Source of the DNA: Deltaproteobacteria bacterium
GTDB taxonomy: Bacteria; Desulfobacterota; GWC2-55-46
NCBI GenBank assembly: GCA_038043525.1
Contig: JBBTBW010000006.1
Location: forward strand, 77,442-141,441
Direction of reading: 5' to 3'
Length of the DNA: 64,000 bases
Part shown: positions 5,352-34,859 of the stretch, piece after piece
Numbering within the stretch: the stretch's first letter is position 1
Layout of the letters: each line of letters starts with the position of its first letter
Made by a program: the position numbers and the translations under genes
Notes under the pieces: model-generated
Told to the model about the DNA's origin: nothing
Seen by the model: only the letters and a program-made list of their open reading frames with translations
Database searches by the model: none

Positions 5352-5426
5352 GCCGATGAGCTTCAATGAGAACATGTATGGATAAAAAAAAGGCTCAGGC
5401 GATAGCCGGAACCTTATGAGTTTATA

Positions 5427-5502
<76 letters not shown>

Positions 5503-18186: not shown

Positions 18187-18301
18187 CGGCAGCGAGGTCT
18201 TCACGATTGGGTCGGGTGTTATATTTTGGCTGATGATGTTTTTTTGGCCTTTATCGGTTGACACGCCCGATAGTTTTTGATACATTATCAAATCTCAGCT
18301 A

Positions 18302-18379
<78 letters not shown>

Positions 18380-18385
18380 AAAATA

Positions 18386-19799
18386 ATCAGGGGTTACGCA
18401 ATTGCGTAACCCCTTTTTTGTTCTCAGAGGGGTTATTAGCTAACATTTTTCTAACAATACAATCTAAAGATACGGGGTATTCTCTTTGCTGGCTCAGATT
18501 TATAACCTGAACCCGCAGTAGAGTGAAATCTATCGAAATAGGTAATGAATTGGGTAGTGACCGATTGGAGAGCAAATGAAAAAATCAGAAGAACATTTGC
18601 TGTTTTCCTTAAGGCGGGCATTGAAAGATTTTAAATCAGATCCGTATGCTGACGGACGTTATGAAAGCCCACATTCTGAAGCAGAACTTGATTTGGACGA
18701 GAATGAACTACCTCTTCCATATATGGTGTTCTTGACATTGGTTACTTTTTCGGGTTTTTCATACTGGGGACGTGAGGAAAAAGTGGCTTGGTCTATACCG
18801 ATCCTCTATAAGGACATTCCTTTTTTATTGGCCTACCGTAAATTTGGATTCGACATAACGACGCCAGCCCTTACGAATGAAACCCGGAAAGCAGCAAAGG
18901 AAATGGTAAGCAAGCTACATAAGGGCATAGTTGTTGCCGACAAACTGCTGAAACCGTTTGCTGAGGCACAAATTAGAAAAAGAAACGTCACCATTCTCAA
19001 TAAATATCATAGTTTTAACAACAGATATCGTTTCTTTCGTGAGCAAGCGGCGCAAAGCTTCTCGAAACTGTCCCAAAGAGGCGCTTTGCAGACGAATAAA
19101 ACAACCAGTACAGTTGAAATATTAAATAACATCTCTACGTTAAGTAACGAAGGTTTCTATCATGCATCAGCTATGCTGGATGCTTATTTTAGTCGCCTGG
19201 AACACGTGCTTGTTTTGTTGCTCGCCTTTACCGATTACAATAGCAAAAAGGACGACCTGGTGAGATTTATAGGCTCCTTTTGGGACGATAAATTCACACG
19301 CATATTTGATATCCAAAAAGATGCTGGGGCAAAGAAATGTTACGATCGATTATGCAATATTAAAGACAGATTCCGGAATCCCCTTTCACATGGAGGTTTT
19401 GAAAGACAGGGAGCATCTCTCAACTTCCATGTACCTGTAGTAGGGGCAATACCTGTTCACCTTTCGAGATTCAAGGATAGTATTCATTATTCCTTTCACC
19501 CGATAGACGAAACCAGCTTCGAAGAGATATGTTCTTTGTTTGACAACGCCGATAAGCTTTTAGAAAACGGAGAAATAAAATTTGGCATGAGATATATAGA
19601 TAGTGGCCTTAACGTAGCCTTTGACGAAGACATGTTAAAGGAGTATCGGCAAGCAATACGATCTGAGAAAGAGATCGAAAATTTTATACAGCATCTGTCT
19701 GATCTATCAGATATGCACACGAATTTGAACTGGTGAGAACCTAACCACTTCATGACCCAATCCTCGCAACTACAGGCTCAGACTAAGTCTTAATGCGAA
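18386..19799. mobile_element. Degenerate tRNA-Met-integrated islet of about 1.4 kb with no integrase
   Basis: Bounded by the tRNA 3'-end direct repeat, with lower GC and a single cargo ORF. Confidence 0.5.
18576..19736 (+). CDS. Hypothetical protein (386 aa) of the tRNA-Met-associated insert; possible HEPN/Abi-like
   Basis: AT-rich ORF with no recognisable family. It contains an Rx4H motif (RNPLSH) of the kind found in HEPN nucleases. Confidence 0.5.
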   Translation: MKKSEEHLLFSLRRALKDFKSDPYADGRYESPHSEAELDLDENELPLPYMVFLTLVTFSGFSYWGREEKVAWSIPILYKDIPFLLAYRKFGFDITTPALTNETRKAAKEMVSKLHKGIVVADKLLKPFAEAQIRKRNVTILNKYHSFNNRYRFFREQAAQSFSKLSQRGALQTNKTTSTVEILNNISTLSNEGFYHASAMLDAYFSRLEHVLVLLLAFTDYNSKKDDLVRFIGSFWDDKFTRIFDIQKDAGAKKCYDRLCNIKDRFRNPLSHGGFERQGASLNFHVPVVGAIPVHLSRFKDSIHYSFHPIDETSFEEICSLFDNADKLLENGEIKFGMRYIDSGLNVAFDEDMLKEYRQAIRSEKEIENFIQHLSDLSDMHTNLNW

Positions 19800-19817
19800 T
19801 CCCCGCTACCAAAAATA
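19800..19817. repeat. 18-bp att-like direct repeat, right copy
   Basis: tccccgctaccaaaaata, followed by a hairpin aagagggtggtattcataccgccctctttt. Confidence 0.75.
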
Positions 19818-20071
19818 TAAAAGAGGGTGGTATTCATACCGCCCTCTTTTCTTATTTCAGGTTGTCAGGGATTGAAAGCAACTGAGGCCAAGAGAGTGGG
19901 AGCGAATGAACGCGGCCAGATCTCCAGGTCACTGATGACGATTTTGCCGCTGAATTTCAGGCCGTGTTTCCTTAAATGGAGACGCGGCTTTTTTCATTTC
20001 ATGCGTATGTTGCTTTGCCTGCGCGTTGGATGTTAATATCCTGAAATATTACGGATGGGACGGAGGCGTCT

Positions 20072-21640
20072 TTGGACCTGATAGTCAGCAATCTGCGCAT
20101 AGCCGTTGAGAGGGACGGAGTAGACGAATATCTGAAGGCCGCCTCTCAGAAGTTGCAGGTCGGCGTGAAGGCATTGAGTTTCGTCAAGATCCTCAGCAAA
20201 TCAATCGACGCGAGGAACAAAAAACAGTTTTTCTATGAGATCGCGATCGTGGTCGCCGTCCCTGAAGGGTTCAACAACCCTGAAGGCTTAGAGGTCTACA
20301 TAGAAAGACCAAAGACGGTCAAGGTGCTCAAAGGCCCTGTTGACAGGCCTATTATCGTAGGCTTCGGCCCTGCTGGTATGTTTGCCGCACTTGAGCTGAT
20401 AGAATACGGGCTCAAGCCGATAATATTCGAGAGAGGCAAAAAGATAGAAGAGCGCTCTGTAGATGTGCGCAGATTTATCAAGGAGAGGGTCCTTGACCCT
20501 GAGTCGAACATCCAGTTCGGCGAGGGCGGCGCAGGCTCATATTCGGATGGAAAGCTGTTTTCCAGGATAAAGAATTCCGAGTACATAGACAAGGTGTTAG
20601 ATACTTTTATCAGGTTCGGCGGACCGGAAGAGATAGGGTATATGCACAAGCCCCATCTCGGAACGGACGTCCTTTGTAAGATTGTCCGCAATATCAGGGA
20701 GCATATACTTGAGAGGGGCGGCCAGATCCATTACAGCTCGCGTATGACGGACATCATCATATCTGACGGCATGGCTTTGGGCGTTGTGATAAACGGCGGA
20801 AGCGAGTACCGTTCATCAAATATCTTCTTAGGCCTCGGCCATTCAGCGCGCGATACCTTCGAGATGCTTCACGCAAAAGGGGTCGCGATCGAGCAAAAGC
20901 CCATCTCCGTCGGCGTAAGGATCGAGCACCCGGCCGAGGTGATCAATGTTATGAGGCACGGAGAGAAGTACAAGTCATTCCCCGGGATCGGTGCGGCGAC
21001 GTATTCCTTGAGCCATAACGACCGTAAGATCGGCCGGGGGATATTTACCTTCTGCATGTGTCCGGGCGGCGAGGTTGTAAACGCCTCGTCAGAGGAAGGG
21101 ATGCATGTTGTAAACGGCATGAGCTACTCGACCAGGTCGTCTCCGTTTTCAAATTCGGCGATAGTCGTGACATGCAATACGGACGACTACGGCTCATCTG
21201 ACCCGCTGGCAGGGTTGGAATTCCAGAAGGCGATAGAGAGAAAGGCGTTTGCCTCTGCTGGGGGTGGATGGCAGGCCCCGGGACAGAACCTGATCGATTT
21301 TATGGCAGGAAGGGTCTCGAAGAGCCTGAATAAGAACTCGTTCGCAATGGGCCTTACTTCAGTTGATATGACGGAGGTCTTCCCGACCTTTGTAAATACA
21401 GCGCTCCTGTCAGCGTTCAACAAATGGAAGGATGCCTACCCGCTTTTCGTCTCGCACCATGCCTTGCTACTTGGTACTGAGACAAGGACGTCAGCCCCTT
21501 TAAGGCTCAAGCGGAGCGAGAGCTACGAGTCGGTAAACGTAAAAAACCTTATTCCGATAGGCGAGGGCTCAGGCTACACCGGAGGGATAACCAGCTCGGC
21601 CGCCGACGCTATAAAGGCTGTTGAGGCGCGGATGGGGTAG
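20072..21640 (+). CDS. FAD-dependent oxidoreductase (COG2509-like uncharacterised FAD-dependent dehydrogenase)
   Basis: Dinucleotide-binding GxGxxG (VGFGPAGMFAALE), an E 19 residues downstream (FERG), and 522-aa length. Confidence 0.6.
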   Translation: MDLIVSNLRIAVERDGVDEYLKAASQKLQVGVKALSFVKILSKSIDARNKKQFFYEIAIVVAVPEGFNNPEGLEVYIERPKTVKVLKGPVDRPIIVGFGPAGMFAALELIEYGLKPIIFERGKKIEERSVDVRRFIKERVLDPESNIQFGEGGAGSYSDGKLFSRIKNSEYIDKVLDTFIRFGGPEEIGYMHKPHLGTDVLCKIVRNIREHILERGGQIHYSSRMTDIIISDGMALGVVINGGSEYRSSNIFLGLGHSARDTFEMLHAKGVAIEQKPISVGVRIEHPAEVINVMRHGEKYKSFPGIGAATYSLSHNDRKIGRGIFTFCMCPGGEVVNASSEEGMHVVNGMSYSTRSSPFSNSAIVVTCNTDDYGSSDPLAGLEFQKAIERKAFASAGGGWQAPGQNLIDFMAGRVSKSLNKNSFAMGLTSVDMTEVFPTFVNTALLSAFNKWKDAYPLFVSHHALLLGTETRTSAPLRLKRSESYESVNVKNLIPIGEGSGYTGGITSSAADAIKAVEARMG

Positions 21641-21654
21641 GGCGCGCAGGTGAG

Positions 21655-21692
21655 GCTAATCCCTCCCGGCCTCACCTTAAATAAGGGGAGGA
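21655..21692. repeat. 38-bp hairpin-containing direct repeat, copy 1 (upstream of DUF559)
   Basis: ctaatccctcccggcctcaccttaaataaggggaggag matches 22158..22195 with 2 mismatches. Confidence 0.8.
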
Positions 21693-21809
21693 GCAAGACA
21701 ATGCCCCTATTTTTTCAAGAGATATTAATAGCGTAGTTGAGACGTTGAAAGAGCGCGCGGAGAAGTAAAGACAAAGCCCCCCTCTTTTTAAAGAGGGGCT
21801 GGGGGAGTT

Positions 21810-22244
21810 ATGAGGTTCCCGCACAACAACCAGAAGCTGAAAAAGAAGAGGCGTGAACTCAGACGGAATCAGACAGACGCTGAAAAGATGCTTTGGGCAC
21901 GGTTACGCAATAAACAATTTTATGGCGTAAAGTTCTTTCGACAATACAGCATGGGTGAGTATGTCCTGGATTTTTACTGCCCATCGCTAAAAGCCGCTAT
22001 AGAGCTGGACGGTGGACAGCACGCTGAAGACGAACAACGTAATCGCGACACTATACGCACAAACTATCTGCAAACGCATGAGATTACAGTCCTGCGATTC
22101 TGGAATAACGACGTACTCTCTAATATGGAGGGCGTCCTTGAGGAAATGTCCACACGACTAACCCCTCCCGGCCTCCCCTTAAATAAGGGGAGGAGTGAAG
22201 AAAAAGAAGAGGCGCAAACTCAGGCGGAAATATATAGGCGGTGA
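21810..22244 (+). CDS. DUF559 endonuclease-domain protein (Vsr-like fold)
   Basis: Hallmark DUF559 block: TDAEKMLWARLRN...FRQY...YVLDFYCPSLKAAIELDGGQH...RD...L...G..VLRF. Confidence 0.8.
   Translation: MRFPHNNQKLKKKRRELRRNQTDAEKMLWARLRNKQFYGVKFFRQYSMGEYVLDFYCPSLKAAIELDGGQHAEDEQRNRDTIRTNYLQTHEITVLRFWNNDVLSNMEGVLEEMSTRLTPPGLPLNKGRSEEKEEAQTQAEIYRR
22158..22195. repeat. 38-bp direct repeat, copy 2 (inside the 3' end of the DUF559 gene)
   Basis: ctaacccctcccggcctccccttaaataaggggaggag. Confidence 0.8.
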
Positions 22245-22619
22245 AAGTTTTTTTTAATCATCAGATTGAATCACGATGTGTATTGACGTAGCTGTTGCGG
22301 TACCTAAGTGGCGCTTAAAAGTTTTTTGGCCATCATCTTGAGATTCGCTGGTTCAGTAGCGAAGTGCAACACTTGGGAGAGCAGAAAGGAAGATTGCCTA
22401 ATCAATAACAGGCCCGGAAAATGCATAGGCTTCAGAAAACCAATCGAAGCAGCTGCTCCCTCCGTTGTACTTTAAGGTTGAATTCGGAGATTGGATCTGC
22501 CGGCCGCTGTCCGGTTCGTGTTCGGGTTGGATTGTCAGTTTCTTTTTTTCGGGTGGATTAACGGCGCTTTCGTGATATTCTGATGGGGTTAGTTTATCGA
22601 CATTCAAAGAGGCGCTACA

Positions 22620-23882
22620 GTGACGGAAGAAATCATAAAATGCCCTTCGTGCGGCTCGAATATCCCGCTTAATGAAACGCTTGCCAATCAGGCGAAGGAG
22701 AGCGCGAGGAAGGAGTTCGAGGCCCGCGGACGTGAAAAGGATAGTGAGATAAAGAGGCGTGAAGAGGAGCTTGAGCGCGCCCGCCAGGAGATCGAGGCCT
22801 CGAAAAAGGCTGTAGCCGAGACCGTTGAAAAGAGGCTCGCCTCCGAGAAGCTGAGGTTGTCCCTGGAAGCAGAAAAGAAAGCGCGCGAAGCGGTGCTTGT
22901 CGAGTTAAACGACCTGAATGCCGCAACAGCCGAGAAGGACAAGCTCCTTGCCGGTGCAAGGGATGCCGAGCTTGAGCAGAGGAAAAAGGCGAGAGACCTT
23001 GGGGAGAGGAACAAGACTCTTGAGCTTGATATGGCAAGAAAGATGGATGAGGAGAGGGAGCGGATAAAGGCCGCGGCTTTTGACACCTTCTCTGAGGAGC
23101 ACAGGCTCAAGGACCTTGAAAAGGACAAACAGCTCGGCGACATGAGAAAGACGATCGATGAGCTGAAGAGAAAGTCAGAGCAGGGATCGATGCAGACGCA
23201 GGGCGAGGTCCTTGAACTCGACCTTGAGTCCATGTTAAAGACAAGGTTCCCTATAGACGCGATAGAGCCGGTGATGAAAGGAAGGCGCGGCGCAGATATA
23301 CTGCACAGGGTCTACACAAGGGGTGGGACTATCTGCGGCACAATAATCTGGGAATTCAAGTCCACAAAGGCATGGTCTGACGACTGGATAGCAAAGCTTA
23401 AGGACGACCAGCGCGAAGAGCGCGCCGATATCGCGGTTATCGTGACAGGGACGATGCCTAAGGGAGTAGCTGCCTTCGCCCTTGTAGAAGGCGTCTGGGT
23501 GACCTCTATAGCCCTTGCCGGGCCTCTTGCCGAGGCGCTCAGGGTAAACCTCATCCAGCTTTCATCTTCGAGGCTCGCCTCGGTTGGCAAGAACGAGAAG
23601 ATGGAGGCGATATATAATTATCTTACCGGTCCCGAGTTCAGGCAAAAGGTGGAGGCGATTGCAGAGGCCTTTACAGCCATGAAAGACGACCTGGAACAAG
23701 AAAAAAGGGCCATGCACAGGATATGGGCCAAGAGGGATAAGCAGATAGAGCGTGTCGTCACGAACACGCTTCGGATGTACGGCGACGTTCAAGGCATCGC
23801 GATGCTCCCTGATATAAAATCGCTTGAGCTTGGTGCAGGCGCTGTTGATTCCGAGTCAGAGGATGGAACTGGGCTTTTTTAG
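22620..23882 (+). CDS. DUF2130-family protein: N-terminal zinc ribbon, long coiled coil, C-terminal PD-(D/E)xK-like domain
   Basis: CPSCGS, a roughly 180-residue E/K/R-rich coiled coil, then GADILHRV...GTIIWEFKS...IAVIVT, consistent with DUF2130. Confidence 0.65.
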   Translation: MTEEIIKCPSCGSNIPLNETLANQAKESARKEFEARGREKDSEIKRREEELERARQEIEASKKAVAETVEKRLASEKLRLSLEAEKKAREAVLVELNDLNAATAEKDKLLAGARDAELEQRKKARDLGERNKTLELDMARKMDEERERIKAAAFDTFSEEHRLKDLEKDKQLGDMRKTIDELKRKSEQGSMQTQGEVLELDLESMLKTRFPIDAIEPVMKGRRGADILHRVYTRGGTICGTIIWEFKSTKAWSDDWIAKLKDDQREERADIAVIVTGTMPKGVAAFALVEGVWVTSIALAGPLAEALRVNLIQLSSSRLASVGKNEKMEAIYNYLTGPEFRQKVEAIAEAFTAMKDDLEQEKRAMHRIWAKRDKQIERVVTNTLRMYGDVQGIAMLPDIKSLELGAGAVDSESEDGTGLF

Positions 23883-23912
23883 AGGCAAAGAAAACAATCA
23901 AAAGACAGGCGG

Positions 23913-24197
23913 GTGGAAATGGGCGTATCGATAGTCATTGTACTGCTGTTCGCGTTCTCGATCGGGATACTTCCGGCCTTCATGGCCTTGAAGATGAAGC
24001 GTAATTTTTTCCTCTGGTGGATATACGGATCGCTTCTTTTTCCGATAGCGTTGGCGCATGTCTACTGGCTTAAAAACGGCTTCCCTATCTTCAGGTCGTC
24101 AGGGACGAAGAGGTGCGGGTTCTGCAGGACCGTGGTAGACGTCAATGCCACGCATTGTACTCACTGCGGGTACGATTTTACGACGATGGGATATTGA
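23913..24197 (+). CDS. Small membrane protein with a C-terminal zinc ribbon
   Basis: Two TM helices, then CGFC...CTHCG. Confidence 0.45.
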   Translation: MEMGVSIVIVLLFAFSIGILPAFMALKMKRNFFLWWIYGSLLFPIALAHVYWLKNGFPIFRSSGTKRCGFCRTVVDVNATHCTHCGYDFTTMGY

Positions 24198-24475
24198 CAG
24201 ACGTCTTTTGAGCTTCCGTGCTTCGGCCATCCTGCGCGGCCGGCCGTGGTTTGGATAGGTTATTAATCGTTATTTTTAGGGCCTTAAAGTCTCGATTATC
24301 CTCTTCGGCAGGCCGTGTCTTTATAGCGCGGCCTGTCGATTTGATGTGAGCTACTCCATCACAGCCTGCCGGTCTTTTGCGCCGTTCGTTCGCATCTAAT
24401 GGTGCCTTTCCAATTCCGCAGAAAATATCAACTCTGAGATGCAAGGCGCTGATCTGTTGACCAGGCTACATCCAT

Positions 24476-25237
24476 CTATTCCAGGTCTATCGTCATTCCG
24501 TCGTAGGCGAGCTCGACTCCCTTAGGCAGAAGCCCGTTGTCTCTCTCGTAGTCGAGGCCGTGGCCGAGGTGCGTAAGGAGCGTCCGCCCGGGTTTGAGCA
24601 TGCCGGCGACCTCTATCGCTTGCTCTATCGTAAAATGCGTTGGATGCGGCTTGTGCCTGAGAGCGCCTATGACAAGGACCTCGATCCCTTCAAGCAGCCT
24701 GATAGATTCGGCAGGTATCGAGCTGCAGTCAGTGACGTACGCGGCTTTGCCTATGCGGTAGCCGAGTATCTGCGCCCTTCCGTGGTATATGTCTATCGGG
24801 GTGATTTTAACGCCTGCCGCTTCGAACGGCCCTGACACCTCAGAGGCCGTAAGGTTGGGCTTCCATCCATCCATGCCGTCGTCGGAGAATATGTAGTCGA
24901 ACATGGTCTTTATGCGCCCTATCGTGAAGGGGTTGCCATAGCATGGTATGGCGTCTTTTTGCACCATGTTGAAGGACCTGAGGTCGTCTATGCCGTGGAT
25001 ATGGTCTGCGTGGGGGTGCGTGAAAAGGACTGCGTCTACCCGCTCGACCCTGTTGGCGAGCGCCTGGGTCCTCAGATCTGTGGATGTGTCTATCAGGAGG
25101 TTCTTGCCGCAGGTATGAACGAGCAGGGATGACCTTGTGCGCTTGTTGCGGGCGTCATCCGAGGAACATACTGTGCAGTGGCAGCCTATGACTGGCACCC
25201 CTGTGGAAGTGCCGCATCCAAGTACGGTCAGTTTCAT
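24476..25237 (-). CDS. MBL-fold metallo-hydrolase (PhnP/ElaC-like)
   Basis: HPHADHIHG metal-binding motif, 253 aa. Confidence 0.8.
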   Translation of the reverse strand: MKLTVLGCGTSTGVPVIGCHCTVCSSDDARNKRTRSSLLVHTCGKNLLIDTSTDLRTQALANRVERVDAVLFTHPHADHIHGIDDLRSFNMVQKDAIPCYGNPFTIGRIKTMFDYIFSDDGMDGWKPNLTASEVSGPFEAAGVKITPIDIYHGRAQILGYRIGKAAYVTDCSSIPAESIRLLEGIEVLVIGALRHKPHPTHFTIEQAIEVAGMLKPGRTLLTHLGHGLDYERDNGLLPKGVELAYDGMTIDLE

Positions 25238-25388
25238 CGGTATGTTATCTGGAGATTGTCAGGCAGGATTGCCGTTAGGCGGCCAGGAACATTTTGCGGC
25301 TTCCTGTTCGCGGTTTACCGATTGGCGCAAAGAGCGTCGGTATTTTTTCGGGCGGCTGATGGCGCTCCCAACAGCTCTATCCGGCAGG

Positions 25389-25622
25389 TCAGGGTTTGTA
25401 TTCGCCTACGACCGTAAGCTCTCCCATGACCTCATCTTCGTGCGGCGCGTCAGACATGAAATCCGTCAGGTCGCTTCCGGCATAGTGCTCGAAGTGCATT
25501 CCGTCGATGAAGAGCGGGTTGTCTGTGACGTCGTATACCTTGCCCTTGTAGGCGATGTATATCGGGGTGTCCGGGTTCGCCCCGTCGAATTTTTTAAGTT
25601 CCGCTTCATTGAAGATTTTCAT
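25389..25622 (-). CDS. Cytochrome b5-like haem/steroid-binding domain protein
   Basis: A 77-aa ORF with the AELKKFDGANPDTPIYIAYKGKVYDVT pattern typical of cyt-b5-like domains. Confidence 0.6.
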   Translation of the reverse strand: MKIFNEAELKKFDGANPDTPIYIAYKGKVYDVTDNPLFIDGMHFEHYAGSDLTDFMSDAPHEDEVMGELTVVGEYKP

Positions 25623-25625
25623 GGA

Positions 25626-26501
25626 CTAAATATAAAACGGCGCCGGCATGAAAGTCAATACAAATACGGCCAGTGCCGCGATGGCTATGACCCTTCTCTT
25701 CCAGTCCAGAGGCTCGCGTTCGTTTTCTATAGGCGGATGGAACAACCCCAGTATCGAGATCAGCGCCGCCCATATAAACCACCCCGGCCAGGCGAAGACC
25801 CCGAGGGCCACCAGGATCGAGATTATCACCGCTGAAAAAGGGCGCTGCCGCCGTCCCAAGAGGGCATACGCGATGTGTCCGCCGTCGAGCTGGCCTATCG
25901 GCAGGAGGTTCATGGCTGTAACGAACATCCCTATCCAGCCTGCGAAGGCGACAGGGTGGAGAGAGACGTCGAGCCCTTCTCTCAAAGGCCCGAACGTAAG
26001 ATAGGTCAAGGCCTCGAATATCAAGGATGATCCGAGGCCGAGGGCTCCGGAGACCGAGCTTTTCTCAATGATCGCTGAGTGGTCGAGACCCCATGATGTG
26101 ACAGCGAGCGCGACTATGAACCCTGCAAGCGGCCCTGAGGCCCCGATCTCGACAAGGGCGTTCTTCGTGGTTATCGGCGACTTGATGCGGATGACGGCCC
26201 CGAAGGTCCCTATCATCGGCGGTATCGGCGGACCGGGTATGAATAAAGGGAACGTGGTTACTACATTATGTCTTTTTGCCGCGAAGAAGTGGCCAAGCTC
26301 GTGCGTGCCCAGTATCAGAAGGAGCGAAAAGGAGAATGGAACTCCTGCGAGCATCAACGACGGGTCGGAGAATATATCAGCCCCTTCAAAGAGAGCGCCG
26401 GCCGCGACCGTAGTCAATACGGTGCAGATGAAGAGCACTAATGGGAGGAGCGCCCTCGGGCCGCGCGCCCGTGAGGATGTCGAATGGTTCTTTCCATTCA
26501 T
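25626..26501 (-). CDS. Site-2 protease family (M50) zinc metalloprotease
   Basis: HELGHFFAAK (HExxH) within a polytopic membrane protein. Confidence 0.8.
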   Translation of the reverse strand: MNGKNHSTSSRARGPRALLPLVLFICTVLTTVAAGALFEGADIFSDPSLMLAGVPFSFSLLLILGTHELGHFFAAKRHNVVTTFPLFIPGPPIPPMIGTFGAVIRIKSPITTKNALVEIGASGPLAGFIVALAVTSWGLDHSAIIEKSSVSGALGLGSSLIFEALTYLTFGPLREGLDVSLHPVAFAGWIGMFVTAMNLLPIGQLDGGHIAYALLGRRQRPFSAVIISILVALGVFAWPGWFIWAALISILGLFHPPIENEREPLDWKRRVIAIAALAVFVLTFMPAPFYI

Positions 26502-26524
26502 GGGAGTCTCATTGCCGCCTGGTC

Positions 26525-27625
26525 CTAGCCCGGCCAGCTGTTCTTCTGTCTTATATGGTCGAGGTATATCTCGATCGCTGTCTGGCCTATGCAGAGTATG
26601 AGCGGGCCGGCGATGATGCCTATGAAGCCGAATACATGCACGGCGCCGAGGATGCTGAAAAAGAGAAGGAGCGGATGGAGGTTTGTCTTGCCGCTCACTA
26701 TGAACGGTCTCAAGAGGTTATCCACAAGCCCTATCACGAAGACCCCCCAGAGGATCAGACCCGCGCCTGCCGCGTAATGCCCTGTGATAAGAAGATAGGC
26801 TGATGCAGGAAGCCATACTATGGCGGAGCCGACCGTCGGGATGAACGAGAAAAAGAACATAACGAAGCCCCATACTATAGCCGCCTGCAGGCCGATGGCC
26901 CAGAACGCGAGGCCGCCTAAGAGCCCCTGGATGAGGGCCACGAAAACTCCGCCGTAGAGGGTCGAGGCTATCACGGAACGGTTGCGCTCTACCACCATCT
27001 CCTTGTCTGTCTCAGACAGTGGGAGCAGGTCTTTTATGAGAGTGAGGACCTTGTCCCCGTCTTTAAAGAGGAAGAACATGGCGAAAAAAGCGAGGATGAT
27101 GTTGAAAATAAACTCGGCGAAGCTTTTTATGAAACCCCTCAGCCCCTCGCCTGCGAACCCGGCGGCCTCTCTTACTATGCCAGCGAAGAAGCCCCTCAGG
27201 TCGACGCTGGATATGTCGACGTACCTGCCGATGAAACTCTCGAATTTGGAAAAAAAGAAGAGAGGCGACTGGTGCGCCCTGCCGGAGACCTCGTTCATGT
27301 AGCCCTCAGCCCAGTGATAGAGGCCGAAAAGCTCGTTCGCCATGGCCGCGCCGATTATCATCATAGGTATCATGATGAAAAGGGCTATTGAAGCGCATGC
27401 CACAAGGGATGCCGCCATCTGCCGGTTGCCGAACTTCTTCAGGAGCCAGATGTAGTAGGGGTAAAAGAGGATGACCAGCGCCGTCGCCCAGAATATCGGG
27501 ATCACAAACGGGACCAGTATCAGGTACGTCAGATAGAGGCCGAGGAACGCAAGTATTATCGCTAGTATGTTTTCTGATTTCATCGCGTGGGCCACCCGCC
27601 CGGAGGCGTTCAGGGGAGCGGACAT
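26525..27625 (-). CDS. AI-2E family transporter (PerM/YhhT-like)
   Basis: 8-TM topology and length typical of AI-2E/UPF0118. Confidence 0.7.
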   Translation of the reverse strand: MSAPLNASGRVAHAMKSENILAIILAFLGLYLTYLILVPFVIPIFWATALVILFYPYYIWLLKKFGNRQMAASLVACASIALFIMIPMMIIGAAMANELFGLYHWAEGYMNEVSGRAHQSPLFFFSKFESFIGRYVDISSVDLRGFFAGIVREAAGFAGEGLRGFIKSFAEFIFNIILAFFAMFFLFKDGDKVLTLIKDLLPLSETDKEMVVERNRSVIASTLYGGVFVALIQGLLGGLAFWAIGLQAAIVWGFVMFFFSFIPTVGSAIVWLPASAYLLITGHYAAGAGLILWGVFVIGLVDNLLRPFIVSGKTNLHPLLLFFSILGAVHVFGFIGIIAGPLILCIGQTAIEIYLDHIRQKNSWPG

Positions 27626-27734
27626 TTATTTTGATTTTCAGCCTGCATCCAAGTATAATTGTATTTTATCATAATACAAGCGGTTTTACCTGTAACAGCA
27701 CTAAAAAAGGCATAATAAAGAGGGTTGATAAGAG

Positions 27735-28757
27735 ATGACTAAGGCTGTAGCGCTACTATCCGGCGGGCTTGACAGCACGCTTGCGGTAAAAATGATGATC
27801 GAGCAGGGCATCGAAGTCTATGCCCTCAACTTCACCTCGGCTTTTTGCACCTGCAACAGCGGTGGGAAGCACCCGGGCGCCGAGGGCGGCGGGTGCAGGA
27901 GTGAGTCCAGGCGGGTCGCCGAAGAGTTCGGTATATCGATAAAGGTCATGTACAAGGGCACGGACTATATAGAGATAGTCCGTAACGCCAGACACGGCTA
28001 CGGCAAGGGGATGAACCCGTGCGTCGACTGCCGGATATATATGTTCAAGGCGGCTAAGGAGTATATGCAGGAGATTGGCGCCTCTTTCGTAATAACCGGA
28101 GAGGTGCTGGGTCAGAGGCCCATGAGCCAGAGGAAGGATGCCTTCAGGATTATAGAGCGTGAAAGCGGCCTTGAAGGGCTGATATTGAGGCCCTTGAGCG
28201 CGAAACAGCTGGAGCCGACCATCCCGGAGACGAGCGGCCTCGTCGACAGGGAGAAGCTCCTTGACGTTCTGGGTAGGTCGAGAAGACAGCAGATAGACCT
28301 TGCCGAGGAGCTCGATGTAAACGACTATCCGTGCCCGTCAGGGGGATGCCTCCTTACCGACAAGATATTCTCAAAGAAAGTGAGGGATCTCCTCGGCCAC
28401 AAGAAGGACGTTACAAAGAGGGACTTATCACTCTTGAAGTCAGGCCGCCACTTCAGGTTCGAGGGCGTCAAGATAGTCATCGGAAGGAACGAGGCTGACA
28501 ACGCAAAGATCAAGGCCCTTGCTCTCGCCGAGGAGACACTGATGGAGCCGTCGGGCTTTTCAGGCCCAGTAGCCCTTATCTGCGGGGAGGCTGGCCCTGT
28601 CGTTACGGCCTTTGCCGCCGGGCTTGTCCTTAGGTACGCGCAGGATAAATCAGTTGAAAAGAAGAGCTTTAACGTCACTGTAAACGGCATCACATCTGTC
28701 TTTGAGGCTGACGTAGCTGTTGAAGAGAGCATGATAGACGAGGTCAGGGTATGTTGA
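27735..28757 (+). CDS. PP-loop ATP-pyrophosphatase, ThiI/MnmA-like sulfur transferase lacking a THUMP domain, Cys-rich
   Basis: SGGLDS PP-loop at residues 9-14. NPCVDCRIYMFKAAKEYMQEIGASFVITGEVLGQ resembles the ThiI/MnmA catalytic region. Additional Cys clusters are present (CTCN, CPSGGC). Confidence 0.6.
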   Translation: MTKAVALLSGGLDSTLAVKMMIEQGIEVYALNFTSAFCTCNSGGKHPGAEGGGCRSESRRVAEEFGISIKVMYKGTDYIEIVRNARHGYGKGMNPCVDCRIYMFKAAKEYMQEIGASFVITGEVLGQRPMSQRKDAFRIIERESGLEGLILRPLSAKQLEPTIPETSGLVDREKLLDVLGRSRRQQIDLAEELDVNDYPCPSGGCLLTDKIFSKKVRDLLGHKKDVTKRDLSLLKSGRHFRFEGVKIVIGRNEADNAKIKALALAEETLMEPSGFSGPVALICGEAGPVVTAFAAGLVLRYAQDKSVEKKSFNVTVNGITSVFEADVAVEESMIDEVRVC

Positions 28758-29659
28758 AGTCAGGGGCTGAGATCGTTGAAAAGACAGCGGTAATCCTTGG
28801 TGCCGCGCTTGACGCTGAGATCGAGGCGGCGGCAAAGGGGCCGGAGGCAGGGGCGCTTGAAAAGCTCGAAGGGCTTAAAAAAATACTGTTGGAGATGCGC
28901 TCTGTACTTGTCGCTTTCTCTGGCGGGGTCGATTCGTCGTTCCTTCTGAAGGTCGCTGTTGACACGCTCGGGGACAAGGCCGGGGCGCTTACAGCGACCT
29001 CGCCGACCTATCCTGAGAGGGAGTTCAATGAGGCCTGCTCCATCGCTGCGAGTCTGTGCGTAAGGCACATAGTGGTCGAGTCCAACGAGCTTGAGATACC
29101 CAACTTCGCGGATAATACAGACAAGAGATGCTACTACTGCAAGAGCGAGCTCTTTCAGATATCGCGTGAAAAGGCGACAGCCTTCGGTTTTGATAACGTA
29201 GCTGACGGCTCAAACGCAGACGACCTGAAGGACTATAGGCCCGGCAAGACCGCCGCAAAGGAGCTTGGCGTCAGAAGCCCTCTGCAGGAGGCCGGCCTCA
29301 ACAAGCTGGAGATAAGAGCTCTTAGCAGGGAGCTGGGGCTTGCTACATGGTCGAAGCCATCCTTTGCCTGTCTTTCTTCCCGCTTCCCATACGGCACCCG
29401 TATCACCGAGGAGAGGCTCGATAAGGTCAGCAGGGGAGAAGAACTTCTCCACGGCCTCGGATTCAGGCAGTTCAGGGTAAGGTATCACGGCGATACTGTC
29501 CGCATCGAGGTCGCCCCTGAACATATAGGTACGTTCCTCTCGGATGACGTCAGGTCCAGTGTCGTGGAAGGATTTAAAGAGATAGGCTTCATATATGTGA
29601 CGCTCGACCTGCAGGGGTACAGGACAGGGTCGATGAACGAGGCGCTGCCGAGGTCGTAA
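28751..29659 (+). CDS. LarE-like PP-loop ATP-dependent sulfur transferase (COG1606 family)
   Basis: SGGVDSS PP-loop after an N-terminal helix. CYYCK plus a third Cys (FACLSSRF) as in Fe-S-type LarE homologs. Overlaps the upstream gene by 7 nt. Confidence 0.6.
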   Translation: MLKSGAEIVEKTAVILGAALDAEIEAAAKGPEAGALEKLEGLKKILLEMRSVLVAFSGGVDSSFLLKVAVDTLGDKAGALTATSPTYPEREFNEACSIAASLCVRHIVVESNELEIPNFADNTDKRCYYCKSELFQISREKATAFGFDNVADGSNADDLKDYRPGKTAAKELGVRSPLQEAGLNKLEIRALSRELGLATWSKPSFACLSSRFPYGTRITEERLDKVSRGEELLHGLGFRQFRVRYHGDTVRIEVAPEHIGTFLSDDVRSSVVEGFKEIGFIYVTLDLQGYRTGSMNEALPRS

Positions 29660-29891
29660 CGGCGCGTTCGTGAGGAGGCAGGTCTTTAATAGGCAGGCCC
29701 GTTTGAAATATGCATAGCCCTGAGAGAACGGATCGTCACGCTATATTTTATATCTGAAGAGCAACTCCGTTACCCTCGAATGGGCTTCCTTGCGGAACTT
29801 TTGAGGTTTGACGGCAAGGCGTCGTCTCTGTGAATAGCAACTGCGCATACTTGCCAGCGTAGGGCTGTTGCATGGGGTGGCGGCTTTTAGT

Positions 29892-32723
29892 TCAGATGCT
29901 TGGGTCTTCGGCGGCTTTTTTCGCTTCTTCTACCCAGTGCCTTGCATGGTGCTTTAATATGGACTTGAAAAACTCGCTCTCAGGGTTTAGCATCTCGTAG
30001 ACCGTAACCGGGGTCGAGGCCTCGAACCCCTTGAATATGACCTCGCCTGCCTTTACGAAGCCTTCTATCTGTTCTATCCCCCTTACGACAACCACCCCGA
30101 ACCGAAACTCCAGCGTCTCAGATGGAAAGAAAAAAGCCTCTCTGATCGACTCGTCAAAATCACTTGTATCGACGGTCTTTTTGAAGAACATCTTCGTGCC
30201 GCGCGTCTCTCTTATGTATGCGTCAAGGGCGCTTTCGCTGAGCGCCTGCCCTTTGTTGTAGATGTCGGTAGACGCGCTTATGAGCCTCAGTGACGTGAAC
30301 GCTTCGCCGGCTATAATCTTCCCGAGGTCGCTTAAAAACTCGTTGGCCATCACCTTGGACATCGCCTTCGCGGTAGCGGGAGTCCCCCGCGAGATCAGCT
30401 TCTCGAAGGCGTTTTCAAGCTCGGGAGGCATCTTTACGGAATAGGTCCTGTCGATATATATGTCGAAAGGATATTTTTTTTCGTGTTTATTCTTGAATCT
30501 TTCGTTCTCCAGCAACATCTCTAGTTTTGCCCGTACAAGCGGGTTTCTGCTCGTCCCTCTGGCCGCCTCGTTGATCTTCTCTCCGATCGAGACCCTGGCC
30601 GGCTCAGTGAACCCGTGTTGCGCTTCGATGACCATCTCTTCGGCCTTTGCCCCGTATGATATGTAAAGGCCTGCCTCCAGCTCGCCTTGGATGGCCGCTT
30701 CGAGCTCGTCCCTGTAGATGTTCTCCAGCCTGTGCTCTTCTTCTCCAAGGGCTACGAGCCTTGATTCGACCACCGGCTCTTTCCTTTCGATCATGAAGTG
30801 CAGCTCGGCCCTTCTATTCTTGAGGTCCTGCTTGCGCGTTTCGAACCTTTTGTTGACCTCTTCAAGCTTTGCCTCGTCATTCGCAGGCGGTAGTTTCCTG
30901 ATGAGCTGGTCCCGGTAGTTACGCGTTATCTTCTGCAGGTCCCTTGCCAGGGCGACGAGATAGCTGACCCCTCCTGAGAATATGGCGGCGTCGCCCGGAA
31001 GGTTCGTGAGCCTAATGCCCCGCTCATCGGCTATTACACCCATGCCGACCTTGTAACCGCTGGCGGCCTTCAGGATAGGCTTGTAGAAGTGGTCCTTCAT
31101 GAACTCGGCCATCGCGATCTCTTTGACCTTGAGCGTCTTTCTCGTGAAGTCTTTCATGTCGATGAAGAGCTGGCCTTCTTCTTCAAGCTCGAGGGTCTTC
31201 AGAAATGGCCTGTCGTCCGTTGAAAACCTGTAAAGCCTGCCTCTGTTGTATTCTTCGAGGAGCATGTTGGCGCCAAACTCTCCCCTTCTGTCCGCCATGC
31301 ACAGGCGCATGGCGCTTGAGTACTTTTCAATGTGCTCATCAAGGCGGAACGCGTAAAAACCGGAGAGAAAACCGTGGAGGGCAGTGAACTCCTCTTTCCT
31401 TGGAGAGCGCAGGAGTCCGCCGAATACCGACCTTTTGAAAGAGGCGAGGTAGCGCTGGAATGCCGCTATGGATTCGCTCCCTGCCGGGTCCTTTACAAAC
31501 CTCTCTCGCACGTCATCGAGCGCTTTGGACAGGTTTGCCGTCTGCTTGGGTTCGGCGAGCAGATTCCTTATCAGGCGGTCCTCGCCGAGTACGGAGTAAA
31601 GTATGTCTCTTGCCTCGCTCCCGGGAATGTCGAGGTCCATCAGGTGCGCTATCGCCTCCTGTCTGAACCTGATGATCTCGCCCTGTTGTCTGAGAGCGTC
31701 GATGCACTCGGCGTCTTCGAGGATCCTTTCCGCGGACATCTTTATAAGGCCTGCCGCGCTCTCGGTATCATTGGAAAACTCCGAGCCGAAAGGCTCGATA
31801 AGGCTGTATATGGCGGCATTGATGCCGTAAGGATTCTGGGAGTTGGACAAGACGGTCGAGGGTATCGCCGCGAAAGCCCTTGGGGTGATCGCGGAGGTTA
31901 TCAGAAGTTCGGTCGATGGGTTGTAAAACGACGCTCCGGATTCCTTGAGCCTGGAGAAGAGATCGGCTACAGCCCCTGAAAACGCGAGGAAGAGCGACAT
32001 GCCAACGGCCAGGTCGATCTTTTCGTAGGTAAGCCCCTTTATCTTACAGCCCTTGATCCGTTCCTTTTTCTTCCGGAGCGTGCCTAATATGGAAAGGAGG
32101 GCGAGGTACGAGGTCTTTTCCTCGCCGGAGAAGCGAGCCTCTTCCTTGAGCGTCTTTTCAAATATGTCAGAGACCCACTTGATGAACTTTTTGCCGTGGC
32201 CTTCCGGTCCGAACCAGTTCAGGAGTATCGCGCTGTCGATGTACGGGACGGAGCAGATGATCTCGGAGGCGAGTTTTTTTTCGATAGACCCGGTGATGAA
32301 GATATCCGTCCGGTAGGTCTTGTCTTTGAGAGGTTGCGCGGTCTGAGAAAACGGCAGAGGCTGAGCGGCTCCTTCCATCAGCCCTTCGCTTGACCCCAAG
32401 CCTTCGTAGCGCTTGGCAAGCATGGCTATAAGGCTCGATATGGCGTTGTCTATGCAGGCTTCATCGTCCGCACCCATGTGGTACGGGACCTTCAGCTCTG
32501 CTATCGACTCGCCGTGCCTGAACCTCATCCGCGTCGGCTCAAGCATCCACGGCCTGCCGTTTACTATGTCCGCGCTCTTTTTAAGGAGCGTATCAAAGAG
32601 CGCCAGGCGCTCCCTGCTGTAATCTTCAGGCATGTCGATACCAGTTTTTGCGTTGGGTGGCGAACCATGCTGTCTCTTTTGATACAGCTTATAATACTTG
32701 TCTTTGTAAAGCAAGTTTGACAT
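29892..32723 (-). CDS. Large hypothetical protein (943 aa) with a central class-III nucleotidyl-cyclase-like palm domain interrupted by a coiled-coil insertion
   Basis: LFIDMKDFT (metal Asp 1), LPGDAAIFSGG (metal Asp 2) and, after about 100 aa of coiled coil, TEPARVSIGEKINEAARG. This last segment aligns to the cyclase YDVWGDTVNLASR motif. The N-terminal 500 aa and C-terminal 200 aa are unassigned. Confidence 0.5.
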   Translation of the reverse strand: MSNLLYKDKYYKLYQKRQHGSPPNAKTGIDMPEDYSRERLALFDTLLKKSADIVNGRPWMLEPTRMRFRHGESIAELKVPYHMGADDEACIDNAISSLIAMLAKRYEGLGSSEGLMEGAAQPLPFSQTAQPLKDKTYRTDIFITGSIEKKLASEIICSVPYIDSAILLNWFGPEGHGKKFIKWVSDIFEKTLKEEARFSGEEKTSYLALLSILGTLRKKKERIKGCKIKGLTYEKIDLAVGMSLFLAFSGAVADLFSRLKESGASFYNPSTELLITSAITPRAFAAIPSTVLSNSQNPYGINAAIYSLIEPFGSEFSNDTESAAGLIKMSAERILEDAECIDALRQQGEIIRFRQEAIAHLMDLDIPGSEARDILYSVLGEDRLIRNLLAEPKQTANLSKALDDVRERFVKDPAGSESIAAFQRYLASFKRSVFGGLLRSPRKEEFTALHGFLSGFYAFRLDEHIEKYSSAMRLCMADRRGEFGANMLLEEYNRGRLYRFSTDDRPFLKTLELEEEGQLFIDMKDFTRKTLKVKEIAMAEFMKDHFYKPILKAASGYKVGMGVIADERGIRLTNLPGDAAIFSGGVSYLVALARDLQKITRNYRDQLIRKLPPANDEAKLEEVNKRFETRKQDLKNRRAELHFMIERKEPVVESRLVALGEEEHRLENIYRDELEAAIQGELEAGLYISYGAKAEEMVIEAQHGFTEPARVSIGEKINEAARGTSRNPLVRAKLEMLLENERFKNKHEKKYPFDIYIDRTYSVKMPPELENAFEKLISRGTPATAKAMSKVMANEFLSDLGKIIAGEAFTSLRLISASTDIYNKGQALSESALDAYIRETRGTKMFFKKTVDTSDFDESIREAFFFPSETLEFRFGVVVVRGIEQIEGFVKAGEVIFKGFEASTPVTVYEMLNPESEFFKSILKHHARHWVEEAKKAAEDPSI

Positions 32724-33059
32724 GGGTTTATCCTTGTAAAACGCGGGGAAGGTAAGATAATATTAACCGCATTGACTCTCTTGCCGCTGTCGTTTGAATG
32801 CGGCCGGTCCCTGTCTTGCCGCATGGAGCGGATCTCGGCGGTCGCGGCGGCCTTCATCCGTAGAAGTGTAGAAGCGCAGAAGGTCCGGGTTGAGAGGTCT
32901 CAGCTATCGCGCCTGAGAGGAGGGTCTTTGCCGGATAGGGCCTTTACACTGTTTTTATCTTATCGCGTGCGATGGTTTTTTTGCGGTGACATCCGTCACC
33001 GCTCTTACGCCTTAAGGCGCAACAGGGTCATAGAACCCATTTGAAGAGACAGATGTGAT

Positions 33060-34859
33060 ATGAGCGGATACCAGCCCGGAAAGACCCGAATAAACCCATA
33101 CTCGGTCGCCTGCGCGTTTATACCGGTCGTACTGGCCTTTCTGGTCTATTACGGCTCGCTTGCTAACGGCTTTGTATATGATGACAACGAGCAGGTCCTG
33201 CGGAATCCCTGGATAACCTCCATCGGATATCTTGACGACATATTCCTCTCCGATTCTTTCGGTTTTTTCAAGGAGACCTTTCAGAAGGTCTCCTACCGTC
33301 CCATTATGTTTGTCGTATACATGGCGGAGTACGCAATGTTCGGTATCTCCCCCTGGGGGTGGCATCTGACAAATGTCCTTCTGCACGGCATAAACGGAAT
33401 GATGGTCTTCCTTGTCATATCCCGCCTGCTCGCTATGCGTGAAGACGGCGCAGGTTTGTCTTCTCCGGCAGTGTATCTGGCCCCGCTCGTCGGCGCTGCG
33501 GTCTTCGTCACGCTTCCGGTAAACGCCGAGGTTGTCTCATGGGTCGGCTGTGTGCCTGAGCTATCCTATACGCTCTTTCTGCTCGTAGCGTTCTACCTCT
33601 ACACGCTGGCGTGGCAGGGTCAGAGAAGTACTTTGCCTCACGTCCTGTCCGCAGTCTTCTTTTTTCTGGCCCTTTTGTCCAAGGAGACAGCCATCATATT
33701 CCCTGTCATGGTATTTCTCTATGACCTTGCGCGGGACCGCTACGAAGGCCTCTTTGCCTCAACGCGGATAGTGCGTTATCTGCCGATGGCGGCGGCCGTG
33801 GCCGTCTATCTTATTGTGAGGTCATACATCATAGGCGGGGTCGCAAGGTCGGGCGGCATTGATACTGGTGTCAGCGATTATCTCTATTTTATCAACGCGT
33901 TTCCGTTGTTCATCAATTATCTTACAGCCCTGGTTCTTCCTGTAAACGACTATCCGCTACAGGTCTTTGAGCCTTTTTTATCAGCGTCAGAGCCTATGGT
34001 TATTATCTCTGTCGTCCTTGTGCTTGCTTTTGCGGTCTTCGCGTTGATATTCAGGAGGCGGTTTTCAGCGCTCCATCTCTTCGCGGTTGTCTGCATCATA
34101 TTGCCTCTTTTGCCGGCACTGTACGTGCCGACCTTCAGCAGGACGCCTTTCGCCGACAGATACCTGTATTTTTCAACCTTCGGGTTCTCGCTCCTTGTCG
34201 CCATGGGAGCGCGTAGCGCCATGATGCACAGAGGCAGGCTTTATGCAGCCGTCCTGGTCTTTCTGCTGATCGTTCTCACCGTAGTCAACTCCGTATGGGC
34301 CGCAGGCAGGAGCCGTATATGGAAGGACGACGCAACTCTGTGGACTTTCGCCGCGAAAGGTTCTGAGAAAAATCATGTGGCCATCCATTCTCTCGGGTAT
34401 CTGGCCATGAAGGCCGGGCGCGTCGACGAGGCTATATCGTTCCTGGAGCGCTCGAAAAGGCTTAACAACGAGTCAAGTTTCCCTGACCGCACCCTTCTTA
34501 TAATGACGCAGAGTATCCTCGGCGCGGGTTATCAGAAAAAAGGTTTGCTCGACAAGGCGGTAAGTGAGTATAATGACGTATTGAGGTTTGCCCCTGAGGA
34601 CTCATTCGTCAACTACAACCTCGGGACGATATACCAGCAGCAGGGTTTTCTTGCCGACGCTGTGGACCTTTACATGACGGCGCTTCTTTTGACAGATGAC
34701 CCTGTCCACAGAAAAGAGATATATGCGAATCTTGGCGGCGCCTATGCTGATCTCGGCAAAAGGGCTGAGGCTCTTGACGCCTACTCTGAGGCGCTTAGAC
34801 TGGCTCCGGATGATCCTGTACTCAGGCAGGCGGCAGAAGGGATGCAGGGGCTGAGATAG
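33060..34859 (+). CDS. TMTC/PMT-like GT-C membrane protein with C-terminal TPR repeats
   Basis: The N-terminal FVYDD motif in the first loop and about 11 TM helices (DUF1736-like), followed by C-terminal TPR repeats. Confidence 0.65.
   Translation: MSGYQPGKTRINPYSVACAFIPVVLAFLVYYGSLANGFVYDDNEQVLRNPWITSIGYLDDIFLSDSFGFFKETFQKVSYRPIMFVVYMAEYAMFGISPWGWHLTNVLLHGINGMMVFLVISRLLAMREDGAGLSSPAVYLAPLVGAAVFVTLPVNAEVVSWVGCVPELSYTLFLLVAFYLYTLAWQGQRSTLPHVLSAVFFFLALLSKETAIIFPVMVFLYDLARDRYEGLFASTRIVRYLPMAAAVAVYLIVRSYIIGGVARSGGIDTGVSDYLYFINAFPLFINYLTALVLPVNDYPLQVFEPFLSASEPMVIISVVLVLAFAVFALIFRRRFSALHLFAVVCIILPLLPALYVPTFSRTPFADRYLYFSTFGFSLLVAMGARSAMMHRGRLYAAVLVFLLIVLTVVNSVWAAGRSRIWKDDATLWTFAAKGSEKNHVAIHSLGYLAMKAGRVDEAISFLERSKRLNNESSFPDRTLLIMTQSILGAGYQKKGLLDKAVSEYNDVLRFAPEDSFVNYNLGTIYQQQGFLADAVDLYMTALLLTDDPVHRKEIYANLGGAYADLGKRAEALDAYSEALRLAPDDPVLRQAAEGMQGLR

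Follow-up and report, generated by a model that had tools for sequence, protein, structure and literature searches.

Why would a ThiI-type protein from a predicted RNA-thiolating family be translationally coupled to LarE, an enzyme of nickel-pincer cofactor synthesis? The question is raised by two overlapping genes in a 64,000-nucleotide (nt) stretch of DNA from a Deltaproteobacteria bacterium (assembly GCA_038043525.1, contig JBBTBW010000006.1, positions 77,442 to 141,441), referred to here as the window. Gene 1 encodes a ThiI-type PP-loop domain followed by an NFACT-R_2 domain, and gene 2 encodes a LarE. An earlier note on this DNA, made from the sequence alone, had singled out the pair, and both open reading frames (ORFs) lie exactly where it placed them, joined by a 7-nt overlap. 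We lean towards reading the locus as a two-gene operon for two separate iron–sulfur (Fe–S)-dependent PP-loop sulfur-insertion enzymes, co-expressed for a common supply of sulfur and Fe–S clusters. Both genes belong to described families and the locus itself is no discovery. The small additions made here are a four-cysteine module in gene 1 and the link between LarE and the ThiI/NFACT-R protein; neither turned up in a literature search, and the pairing appears unreported.

The product of gene 1 (340 residues, ATG start) is composed of two domains that together account for its entire length. Pfam places a ThiI domain (PF02568) at residues 3–155, with 58.6 bits against a cut-off of 20.5, and an NFACT-R_2 domain (PF18297, or DUF814) at residues 237–323, with 54.4 bits against 26.9; it gives no match to a THUMP or rhodanese domain. 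The features of gene 1 are as follows.

27735..28757, plus strand: gene 1, a THUMP-less ThiI-type PP-loop adenosine triphosphate (ATP) pyrophosphatase with an NFACT-R_2 (DUF814) domain, predicted to be a [4Fe-4S]-dependent RNA (tRNA U8) sulfurtransferase (Pfam, structure model, Foldseek).
27759..27776, plus strand: PP-loop ATP-binding motif SGGLDS, residues 9–14 (S9, G11, L12 and D13 invariant in 65 homologues).
28020..28031, plus strand: CxxC (C96-V-D-C99 within NPCVDC), with C205 the putative [4Fe-4S] ligand set (256/256 homologues; analogy to Methanococcus maripaludis TtuI, PMC9825150).
28347..28349, plus strand: Cys205 of a GGC motif, the third invariant cysteine (256/256 homologues; invariant in the 65-sequence alignment).
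28443..28703, plus strand: NFACT-R_2/DUF814 RNA-binding domain, residues 237–323, with near-invariant R238 and R251 (Pfam, conservation, Foldseek match to RqcH).

In a diverse alignment of 65 homologues (A1; 39–63% identity), S9, G11, L12, D13, C96, C99, R183 and C205 are invariant, and conservation is 90% or higher at G180, R181, Q186, E165, R238 and R251. Cysteines were counted separately in 256 full-length homologues. The loop motifs GRSRxxQ and TxxE, together with the pair of conserved DUF814 arginines, fit the published description of the ‘ThiI+DUF814’ family, which Burroughs and Aravind defined computationally in 2014 as a predicted alternative, THUMP-less pathway to tRNA 4-thiouridine (PMC4075521). 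The signatures given there are retained PP-loop residues, a CxxC with an internal cysteine, GRxRxxQ and TxxE, and two DUF814 arginines; the distribution of the family is nearly mutually exclusive with that of THUMP-containing ThiI. All of these sequence signatures are present in gene 1, and by them it is a member of the family. The same CxxC and third cysteine constitute the [4Fe-4S] ligand set needed for catalysis in the TtuI proteins of M. maripaludis and Pyrococcus furiosus (PMC9825150), which makes Fe–S dependence of gene 1 a reasonable inference.

Curated models set gene 1 apart from its better known relatives. It scores 54.2 bits against the canonical ThiI/TtuI model TIGR00342 (cut-off 264.5), over model positions 174–313 only, and 38 bits against the MnmA model NF001138 (cut-off 284), where the HUP domain alone matches. 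True MnmA proteins, found as neighbours of gene 1 homologues at two of the loci surveyed below (L024 and L036), carry all three MnmA domains (HUP, PRC-barrel and C-terminal β-barrel). Because its scores fall far below the curated cut-offs, gene 1 was rejected as a canonical ThiI, MnmA or QueC. For either gene, matches to MnmA, QueC, NAD synthase and asparagine synthase are weak, at the level of the PP-loop, and far under the cut-offs.

The AlphaFold model of gene 1, computed from an alignment, has a predicted local distance difference test score of 93.9 and a predicted template modelling score of 0.90, with one disordered loop at residues 47–52. Foldseek searches of the PDB find MnmA, ThiI, M. 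maripaludis LarE, QueC and TtuA as matches for the N-terminal half, and RqcH in ribosome-bound quality-control complexes (8s1u_H and 7aqc_R) for the C-terminal part. RqcH is the prototype NFACT protein. At E ≤ 1e-30 the gene 1 family comprises 944 representative clusters (50% identity). Close homologues (P0006, P0021, P0037, P0039 and others) bear public names as different as ‘7-cyano-7-deazaguanine synthase’ (NCBI), ‘tRNA U34 2-thiouridine synthase MnmA/TrmU’ (JGI) and ‘hypothetical’. Since the curated cut-offs support neither of the two functional names, the family is left without a proper model and name.

Gene 2 (302 residues, ATG start) is clear from its sequence as a LarE of the catalytic [4Fe-4S] type. 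It scores 331.4 bits against the NCBIfam equivalog TIGR00268 (cut-off 150) over model positions 1–259 of 259, and the same model matches 21/21 of the LarEs that neighbour gene 1 homologues. Lactiplantibacillus plantarum LarE (5UDQ) aligns with residues 43–301 (E 3.6e-52), and the [4Fe-4S] LarE of M. maripaludis (8CNZ) also matches (E 3.7e-18). The features of gene 2 are as follows.

28751..29659, plus strand: gene 2, LarE, an ATP-dependent sulfur insertase of the [4Fe-4S] (CxxC plus third cysteine) type, by its TIGR00268, 5UDQ and 8CNZ matches.
28919..28936, plus strand: PP-loop motif SGGVDS, residues 57–62 (S57, G59, D61 and S62 invariant in 21 paired LarEs).
29129..29140, plus strand: CYYC (C127 to C130), where L. 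plantarum LarE has W97 and A100 (alignment; invariant among paired LarEs).
29369..29371, plus strand: Cys207, the putative third cluster ligand, one residue past the position of L. plantarum Cys176.

The LarE of Thermotoga maritima holds a [4Fe-4S] cluster by three cysteines, acts catalytically and not sacrificially, and makes the cofactor precursor; a one-residue shift of the third cysteine has been described for it (PMC9283937). A sacrificial, single-cysteine LarE was rejected for gene 2, in which the CxxC is present and the third cysteine is shifted by one residue. Cys207 is followed by S210/R211 and then by R242/R244, corresponding to S180/R181 and R212/R214 of the L. plantarum enzyme. Phosphate-binding roles are assigned to Ser180, Arg212 and Arg214 (PMC9283937), and their equivalents S210, R242 and R244 are conserved in 21–22 of 22 aligned sequences. 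All paired LarEs keep SGGxDS, CxxC-K, the shifted third cysteine and S180, R181, E200, R212 and R214 (L. plantarum numbering), and C127, C130 and C207 are invariant in their alignment (A2). The ~36 extra N-terminal residues of gene 2 are acidic and poorly conserved among relatives.

Much of what the earlier note had read from the two genes agrees with these results. The motifs that it quoted are all in place: SGGLDS (9–14), NPCVDC (94–99) and ITGEVLGQ in gene 1, and SGGVDS (57–62), CYYCK (127–131) and the third cysteine (207) in gene 2. Pfam and the curated models concur with its description of gene 1 as ThiI/MnmA-like and free of a THUMP domain, although the C-terminal NFACT-R_2 domain had been overlooked, and the orthology to canonical ThiI that it named as contrary evidence was not seen. 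Its description of gene 2 as LarE-like with an Fe–S-type cysteine triad is borne out by the equivalog score and by the alignment. The conserved-cysteine check that it proposed finds the triad C96/C99/C205 in 256/256 gene 1 homologues and the triad of gene 2 invariant among paired LarEs. Its suggestion of a non-Lar role for gene 2 fared less well. The genes for LarB, LarC and LarE are frequently scattered (cyanobacteria are one example), and LarE is common outside lar operons (PMC11796402), so that its position outside such an operon is not unusual in itself. All tested LarE residues are kept, and in related lineages larC lies ~6–8 kb upstream of the pair on the same strand; for these reasons a non-Lar role is not indicated by the sequence.

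The coupling of the two genes is as tight as their coordinates imply. The ATG of gene 2 lies within the final codons of gene 1 (GTATGTTGA), with a GAGG sequence 11–12 nt upstream, and the 109-nt intergenic region between gene 1 and a divergent AI-2E-family transporter gene contains a promoter candidate.

28751..28757, plus strand: 7-nt overlap ATGTTGA, the gene 2 start lying inside the Cys340 and stop codons of gene 1 (sequence).
27631..27659, plus strand: sigma-70-like promoter candidate TTGATT-17-TATAAT (consensus scan, 10/12 matches; a consensus match only).

An overlapping start is kept in 13/13 other loci of the window's lineage that were examined, as ATGYTGA, ATGTTAG, ATGCTAA or a 10-nt form. 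With LarE placed first, the overlap is 4 nt (ATGA or GTGA). Because the overlap is conserved, co-expression of genes 1 and 2, which had been proposed from the overlap in the window, is plausible. An Rfam scan of positions 24000–34000 gave no family match around the pair. In the window's lineage the C-terminus of gene 1 is Arg-Val-Cys-stop, and its Val and Cys codons supply the LarE ATG (GTATGYTGA). The terminal Cys340 (codon 28752–28754) occurs in 120/256 homologues, all 120 of them close; it may be kept by function or by the overlapping start codon.

The pairing recurs well beyond the window. One genome per species was scanned with the gene 1 alignment and the 80 best loci (designated by L numbers) were kept; because a flank of 1.2 kb or more is available on each side at only 61 loci, the counts of LarE adjacency are lower bounds. 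Among genuine neighbours of the gene 1 homologues LarE ranks first: it is directly adjacent at 15 of the 80 species loci (14 complete ORFs and the truncated one of L017) and lies 1.3–3.5 kb away at three more. Gene 1 precedes LarE in the window's lineage, where the overlap is 7 or 10 nt at 13 further loci (L007, L009, L090 and L092 among them), an order shared by a Myxococcota metagenome-assembled genome (MAG; L034) with a 4-nt overlap. LarE comes first in L036, L044, L047, L048, L094 and L095, with a 4-nt overlap (abutting in L094), and in an Omnitrophota MAG (L050), with a 9-nt gap. Elsewhere the two are separated, in the order gene 1, MnmA, LarE in L024 (Desulfomonilia) and MnmG, gene 1, HcyBio, NIL-ferredoxin, LarE and, further on, IscS in L057 (Omnitrophota). 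The pairing spans Thermodesulfobacteriota, Myxococcota and Omnitrophota, in at least four distinct arrangements with both gene orders and changing flanks. No LarE was found within 8 kb of the homologues in Geobacter, Geomonas, Pelobacter, Nitrospirota, anammox Planctomycetota and Thaumarchaeota. Roughly three quarters of the gene 1 loci lack a LarE inside that distance, so gene 1 needs no adjacent LarE. The identical protein pair is present on NCBI MAG GCA_964356895.1 (contig CAYHJL010000010.1) and several groundwater assemblies, and the labels of related contigs read Thermodesulfobacteriota, Deltaproteobacteria or ‘Desulfobacterota UBA5799’.

An adjacency without functional meaning, with the overlap a by-product of compact packing, would suit the functionally unrelated flanks in the window (the AI-2E transporter, an M50 peptidase and a 943-residue protein). 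We give this explanation very little credence. Chance adjacency is very unlikely because the pair recurs in two orders, with changing flanks, in three phylum-level groups, and because no more than about one genome in four has LarE (PMC11796402).

The larger neighbourhoods place both genes among genes of sulfur metabolism. At L036, L094 and L095, and partly at L047 and L048, a same-strand cluster headed by larC has the pair at its far end, in the order LarC, two small ORFs, TilS, Rrf2, CysK (at most loci), HcyBio (COG1900), NIL-ferredoxin, MnmA, LarE and ThiI/NFACT-R (L036 51–9005; L094 10001–18933; L095 10001–20977). The LarC of L036 was verified (PF01969, ‘nickel pincer cofactor biosynthesis protein LarC’), and in a homology search with it the best 120 matches were all close relatives of L036. 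Over all loci, the same-strand neighbours of gene 1 homologues include LarE (25), Rrf2 (12), CysK (12), MnmA (11), IscS (7), ThiF/MoeB (7), HcyBio with NIL-ferredoxin (6), TilS (5), ThiH (4) and ThiG (2), as well as MnmG. The setting of gene 1 is a sulfur-assimilation and -utilisation neighbourhood with a strong tRNA-modification component, and the survey strengthens the link of this widespread, inconsistently annotated family to genes of tRNA thiolation and sulfur mobilisation. Through the cluster that runs from LarC to LarE and ThiI/NFACT-R, nickel-pincer genes are co-located with sulfide-dependent homocysteine synthesis and tRNA thiolation, suggesting that some sulfate-reducer-related bacteria regulate nickel-pincer synthesis, sulfide assimilation and tRNA thiolation together. 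The cluster also offers a practical route to the sulfur donor of cluster-dependent enzymes. We know of no settled mechanism for the HcyBio reaction, so its co-location with LarC and LarE may merit a look.

On the reading towards which we lean, the NFACT-R_2 domain of gene 1 would hold an RNA while the PP-loop domain would bind ATP and adenylate one of its uridines at O4; the likeliest target is U8 of tRNA. Sulfide bound to the free iron of a [4Fe-4S] cluster on C96, C99 and C205 would then displace adenosine monophosphate, leaving 4-thiouridine. Gene 2 would act as a cluster-dependent LarE on the nickel-pincer cofactor precursor. The pairing would most likely arise from a common need for Fe–S loading and for a sulfide or persulfide donor, under the common regulation that is suggested by the Rrf2 regulator over the larger clusters. 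What was observed directly are the domain architectures, the conserved catalytic residues, the conserved overlap and the recurring neighbourhoods; Fe–S binding, the substrates and the reason for the pairing are inferred from them. The earlier note had preferred a nucleotide or cofactor to tRNA as the substrate of gene 1. The NFACT-R_2 domain, membership of a predicted tRNA-thiolating family (PMC4075521) and the tRNA-modification and sulfur neighbours argue instead for RNA.

Several observations weigh against this reading, and other explanations draw on them. The role of the gene 1 family in forming 4-thiouridine at tRNA position 8 (s4U8) is one comparative-genomics prediction. A literature search found no experimental study of any ThiI+DUF814 protein, hence no experimental proof of s4U8 activity, and a search for s4U8 in organisms with ThiI+DUF814 only gave nothing usable. 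TusA, the only neighbour reported for the family in 2014 (PMC4075521), is missing beside the pair in the window; in a tblastn search of 89 loci with Escherichia coli TusA as query, L061 alone gave a clear match. LarE, and not the published TusA, is the commonest neighbour in these lineages, and a TusA neighbour is a contextual feature of the family and not a defining one of its sequence. A thiazole/thiamine cluster at L027 (6863–14293; Smithella sp. SCADC) takes in the gene 1 homologue; in order it has a bioB-like radical SAM gene, gene 1, thiG, thiH, thiF, a thiE fragment, LarE and a further radical SAM gene, which makes a thiamine-related role of the family possible. Gene 1 might then supply sulfur for thiazole and thiamine, or modify another RNA (rRNA or another tRNA position), with gene 2 an ordinary LarE. 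ThiF/MoeB-like, ThiH and ThiG neighbours at 7, 4 and 2 loci speak for the first version, and the ribosomal site of action of the NFACT-R domain of RqcH for the second. We nevertheless consider such a role for gene 1 rather unlikely: the thiamine function of E. coli ThiI needs a rhodanese domain (PMC4075521), which gene 1 lacks, the MnmA, TilS, MnmG and IscS neighbours point to tRNA, and near mutual exclusion with THUMP-containing ThiI is reported for the family (PMC4075521).

The other difficulties concern the pairing itself. Tight coupling in two independent gene orders exceeds what co-regulation needs and would also fit a complex. Moreover, Pfam scans of ~45 ORFs across the 64 kb detected no LarA, LarB, LarC, TusA, IscS, THUMP-containing ThiI or MnmA, which removes larB and larC from the immediate surroundings of gene 2. 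These points would be accommodated by one dedicated system, a heteromeric PP-loop pair acting on a common RNA or on a nucleotide cofactor other than the pincer, with the LarE homologue working outside Lar synthesis. The conservation of the overlap in both gene orders across the three phylum-level groups, the fact that LarE neighbours gene 1 homologues more often than any other gene does, and the recurring trio of MnmA, LarE and gene 1, which sets LarE among tRNA enzymes, are all in keeping with it. This main rival is nonetheless unlikely, to our mind. Most gene 1 loci do without LarE, the paired LarEs retain every phosphate-binding residue and score far above the equivalog cut-off, and larC belongs to the same cluster at three loci (L036, L094 and L095). 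No fusion of gene 1 with LarE occurs among long homologues: P0172 (695 residues) and P0234 (519 residues) have a TatC-like tail and an N-terminal extension of ~210 residues, neither of them LarE. The N-terminal extension of gene 2, being acidic, does not have the look of an RNA-binding segment. Doubtful, too, is the proposal that in several anaerobic lineages a LarE homologue and the ThiI/NFACT-R protein are obligate partners in an Fe–S-dependent heteromer, either acting together on a single RNA or nucleotide substrate or with one of them charging its partner with sulfur. If it were true, ‘LarE’ would gain a role outside nickel-pincer cofactor synthesis, and a missing partner would be supplied for a widespread, never characterised RNA-thiolation family.

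Both genes can be set beside the closest systems already described. Gene 1 resembles the published ThiI+DUF814 proteins (PMC4075521) in SGGxDS, CxxC with the internal cysteine, GRxRxxQ, TxxE, the two DUF814 arginines and the lack of THUMP and rhodanese domains, but differs in having LarE in place of TusA as the main neighbour, here and in related lineages, and in adding a co-varying four-cysteine module. With the TtuI/ThiI of M. maripaludis (PMC9825150) it has in common the ThiI-type PP-loop domain and the CXXC+C triad, and would share the chemistry proposed there, adenylation followed by attack of a cluster-bound sulfide; in contrast, gene 1 has no N-terminal ferredoxin-like and THUMP regions, carries a C-terminal NFACT-R_2 domain instead and is not a TIGR00342 equivalog. 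Gene 2 shares SGGxDS, CxxC with the shifted third cysteine and the equivalents of Ser180, Arg212 and Arg214 with the LarEs of T. maritima (PMC9283937) and M. maripaludis (8CNZ), but has ~36 more N-terminal residues and lies outside a lar operon, translationally coupled to a ThiI/NFACT-R gene. Full-length homology, fold family and substrate-binding residues are common to gene 2 and the sacrificial LarE of L. plantarum (5UDQ), whereas that enzyme gives up the sulfur of Cys176 and has W97 and A100 in place of the CxxC of the putative cluster-binding triad.

A 2026 survey of the neighbourhoods of Thi4 found that genes for the generation, relay and use of sulfur cluster together, including LarE, ThiI, MnmA and HcyBio (PMC13325395). 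The set of LarE, ThiI, MnmA, HcyBio, CysK, NifS/IscS and ThiF is co-localised here too. The anchor here is ThiI/NFACT-R, however, and the window keeps the LarE pair only, the rest of the cluster being absent.

The four-cysteine module of gene 1 comprises C38 and C40 (27846–27854), C54 (27894–27896) and C200 (28332–28334). C200 is present in 135/135 homologues that have C38, C40 and C54 and in 6/121 of the others. The earlier note had remarked on extra cysteines in gene 1, and it is these four that strictly co-occur in homologues. Their strict co-occurrence suggests a second metal site, which, judged from the sequences, would probably be structural and specific to the subfamily. The loop at residues 47–52, between module cysteines, is the sole low-confidence part of the gene 1 model. 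A tie between the module and LarE adjacency was considered and set aside as weak (19/20 versus 43/59).

Downstream of the pair, a gene for a 943-residue protein lies on the minus strand (29892..32723), convergent with gene 2 and 232 nt from it. The ‘cyclase-like’ label given to it in the earlier note has no support from profile searches: Pfam, NCBIfam and the PDB sequences yielded no significant match to the protein. Proteins of 44–57% identity occupy the same position in L007, L010, L012, L013, L016, L046, L090 and L092, and by its sequence this is a lineage-specific conserved protein with no assigned function. It forms one end of a lineage-conserved block that reads MBL hydrolase, cytochrome b5, M50 peptidase and AI-2E transporter, then gene 1 and LarE, then the ~900-residue protein. 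The part of this block upstream of the pair (24476–27625, minus strand) is divergent from it and syntenic in L007, L009, L090 and L092; it encodes a ‘GPMC system’ MBL-fold hydrolase (NF038231, 376 bits), a 77-residue cytochrome b5-like protein, an M50 peptidase and the AI-2E transporter. Further upstream, positions 2346–8584 hold five consecutive ORFs (258, 166, 192, 645 and 266 residues) with no Pfam match at E ≤ 0.001. Positions 18001–23900 have a low GC content (0.436 against ~0.54) and may be an acquired islet, in which an ORF of 386 residues without a Pfam match (18576–19736) precedes genes for an FAD-dependent protein, a DUF559/MTES_1575 protein (Vsr-like endonuclease fold) and a DUF2130 protein.

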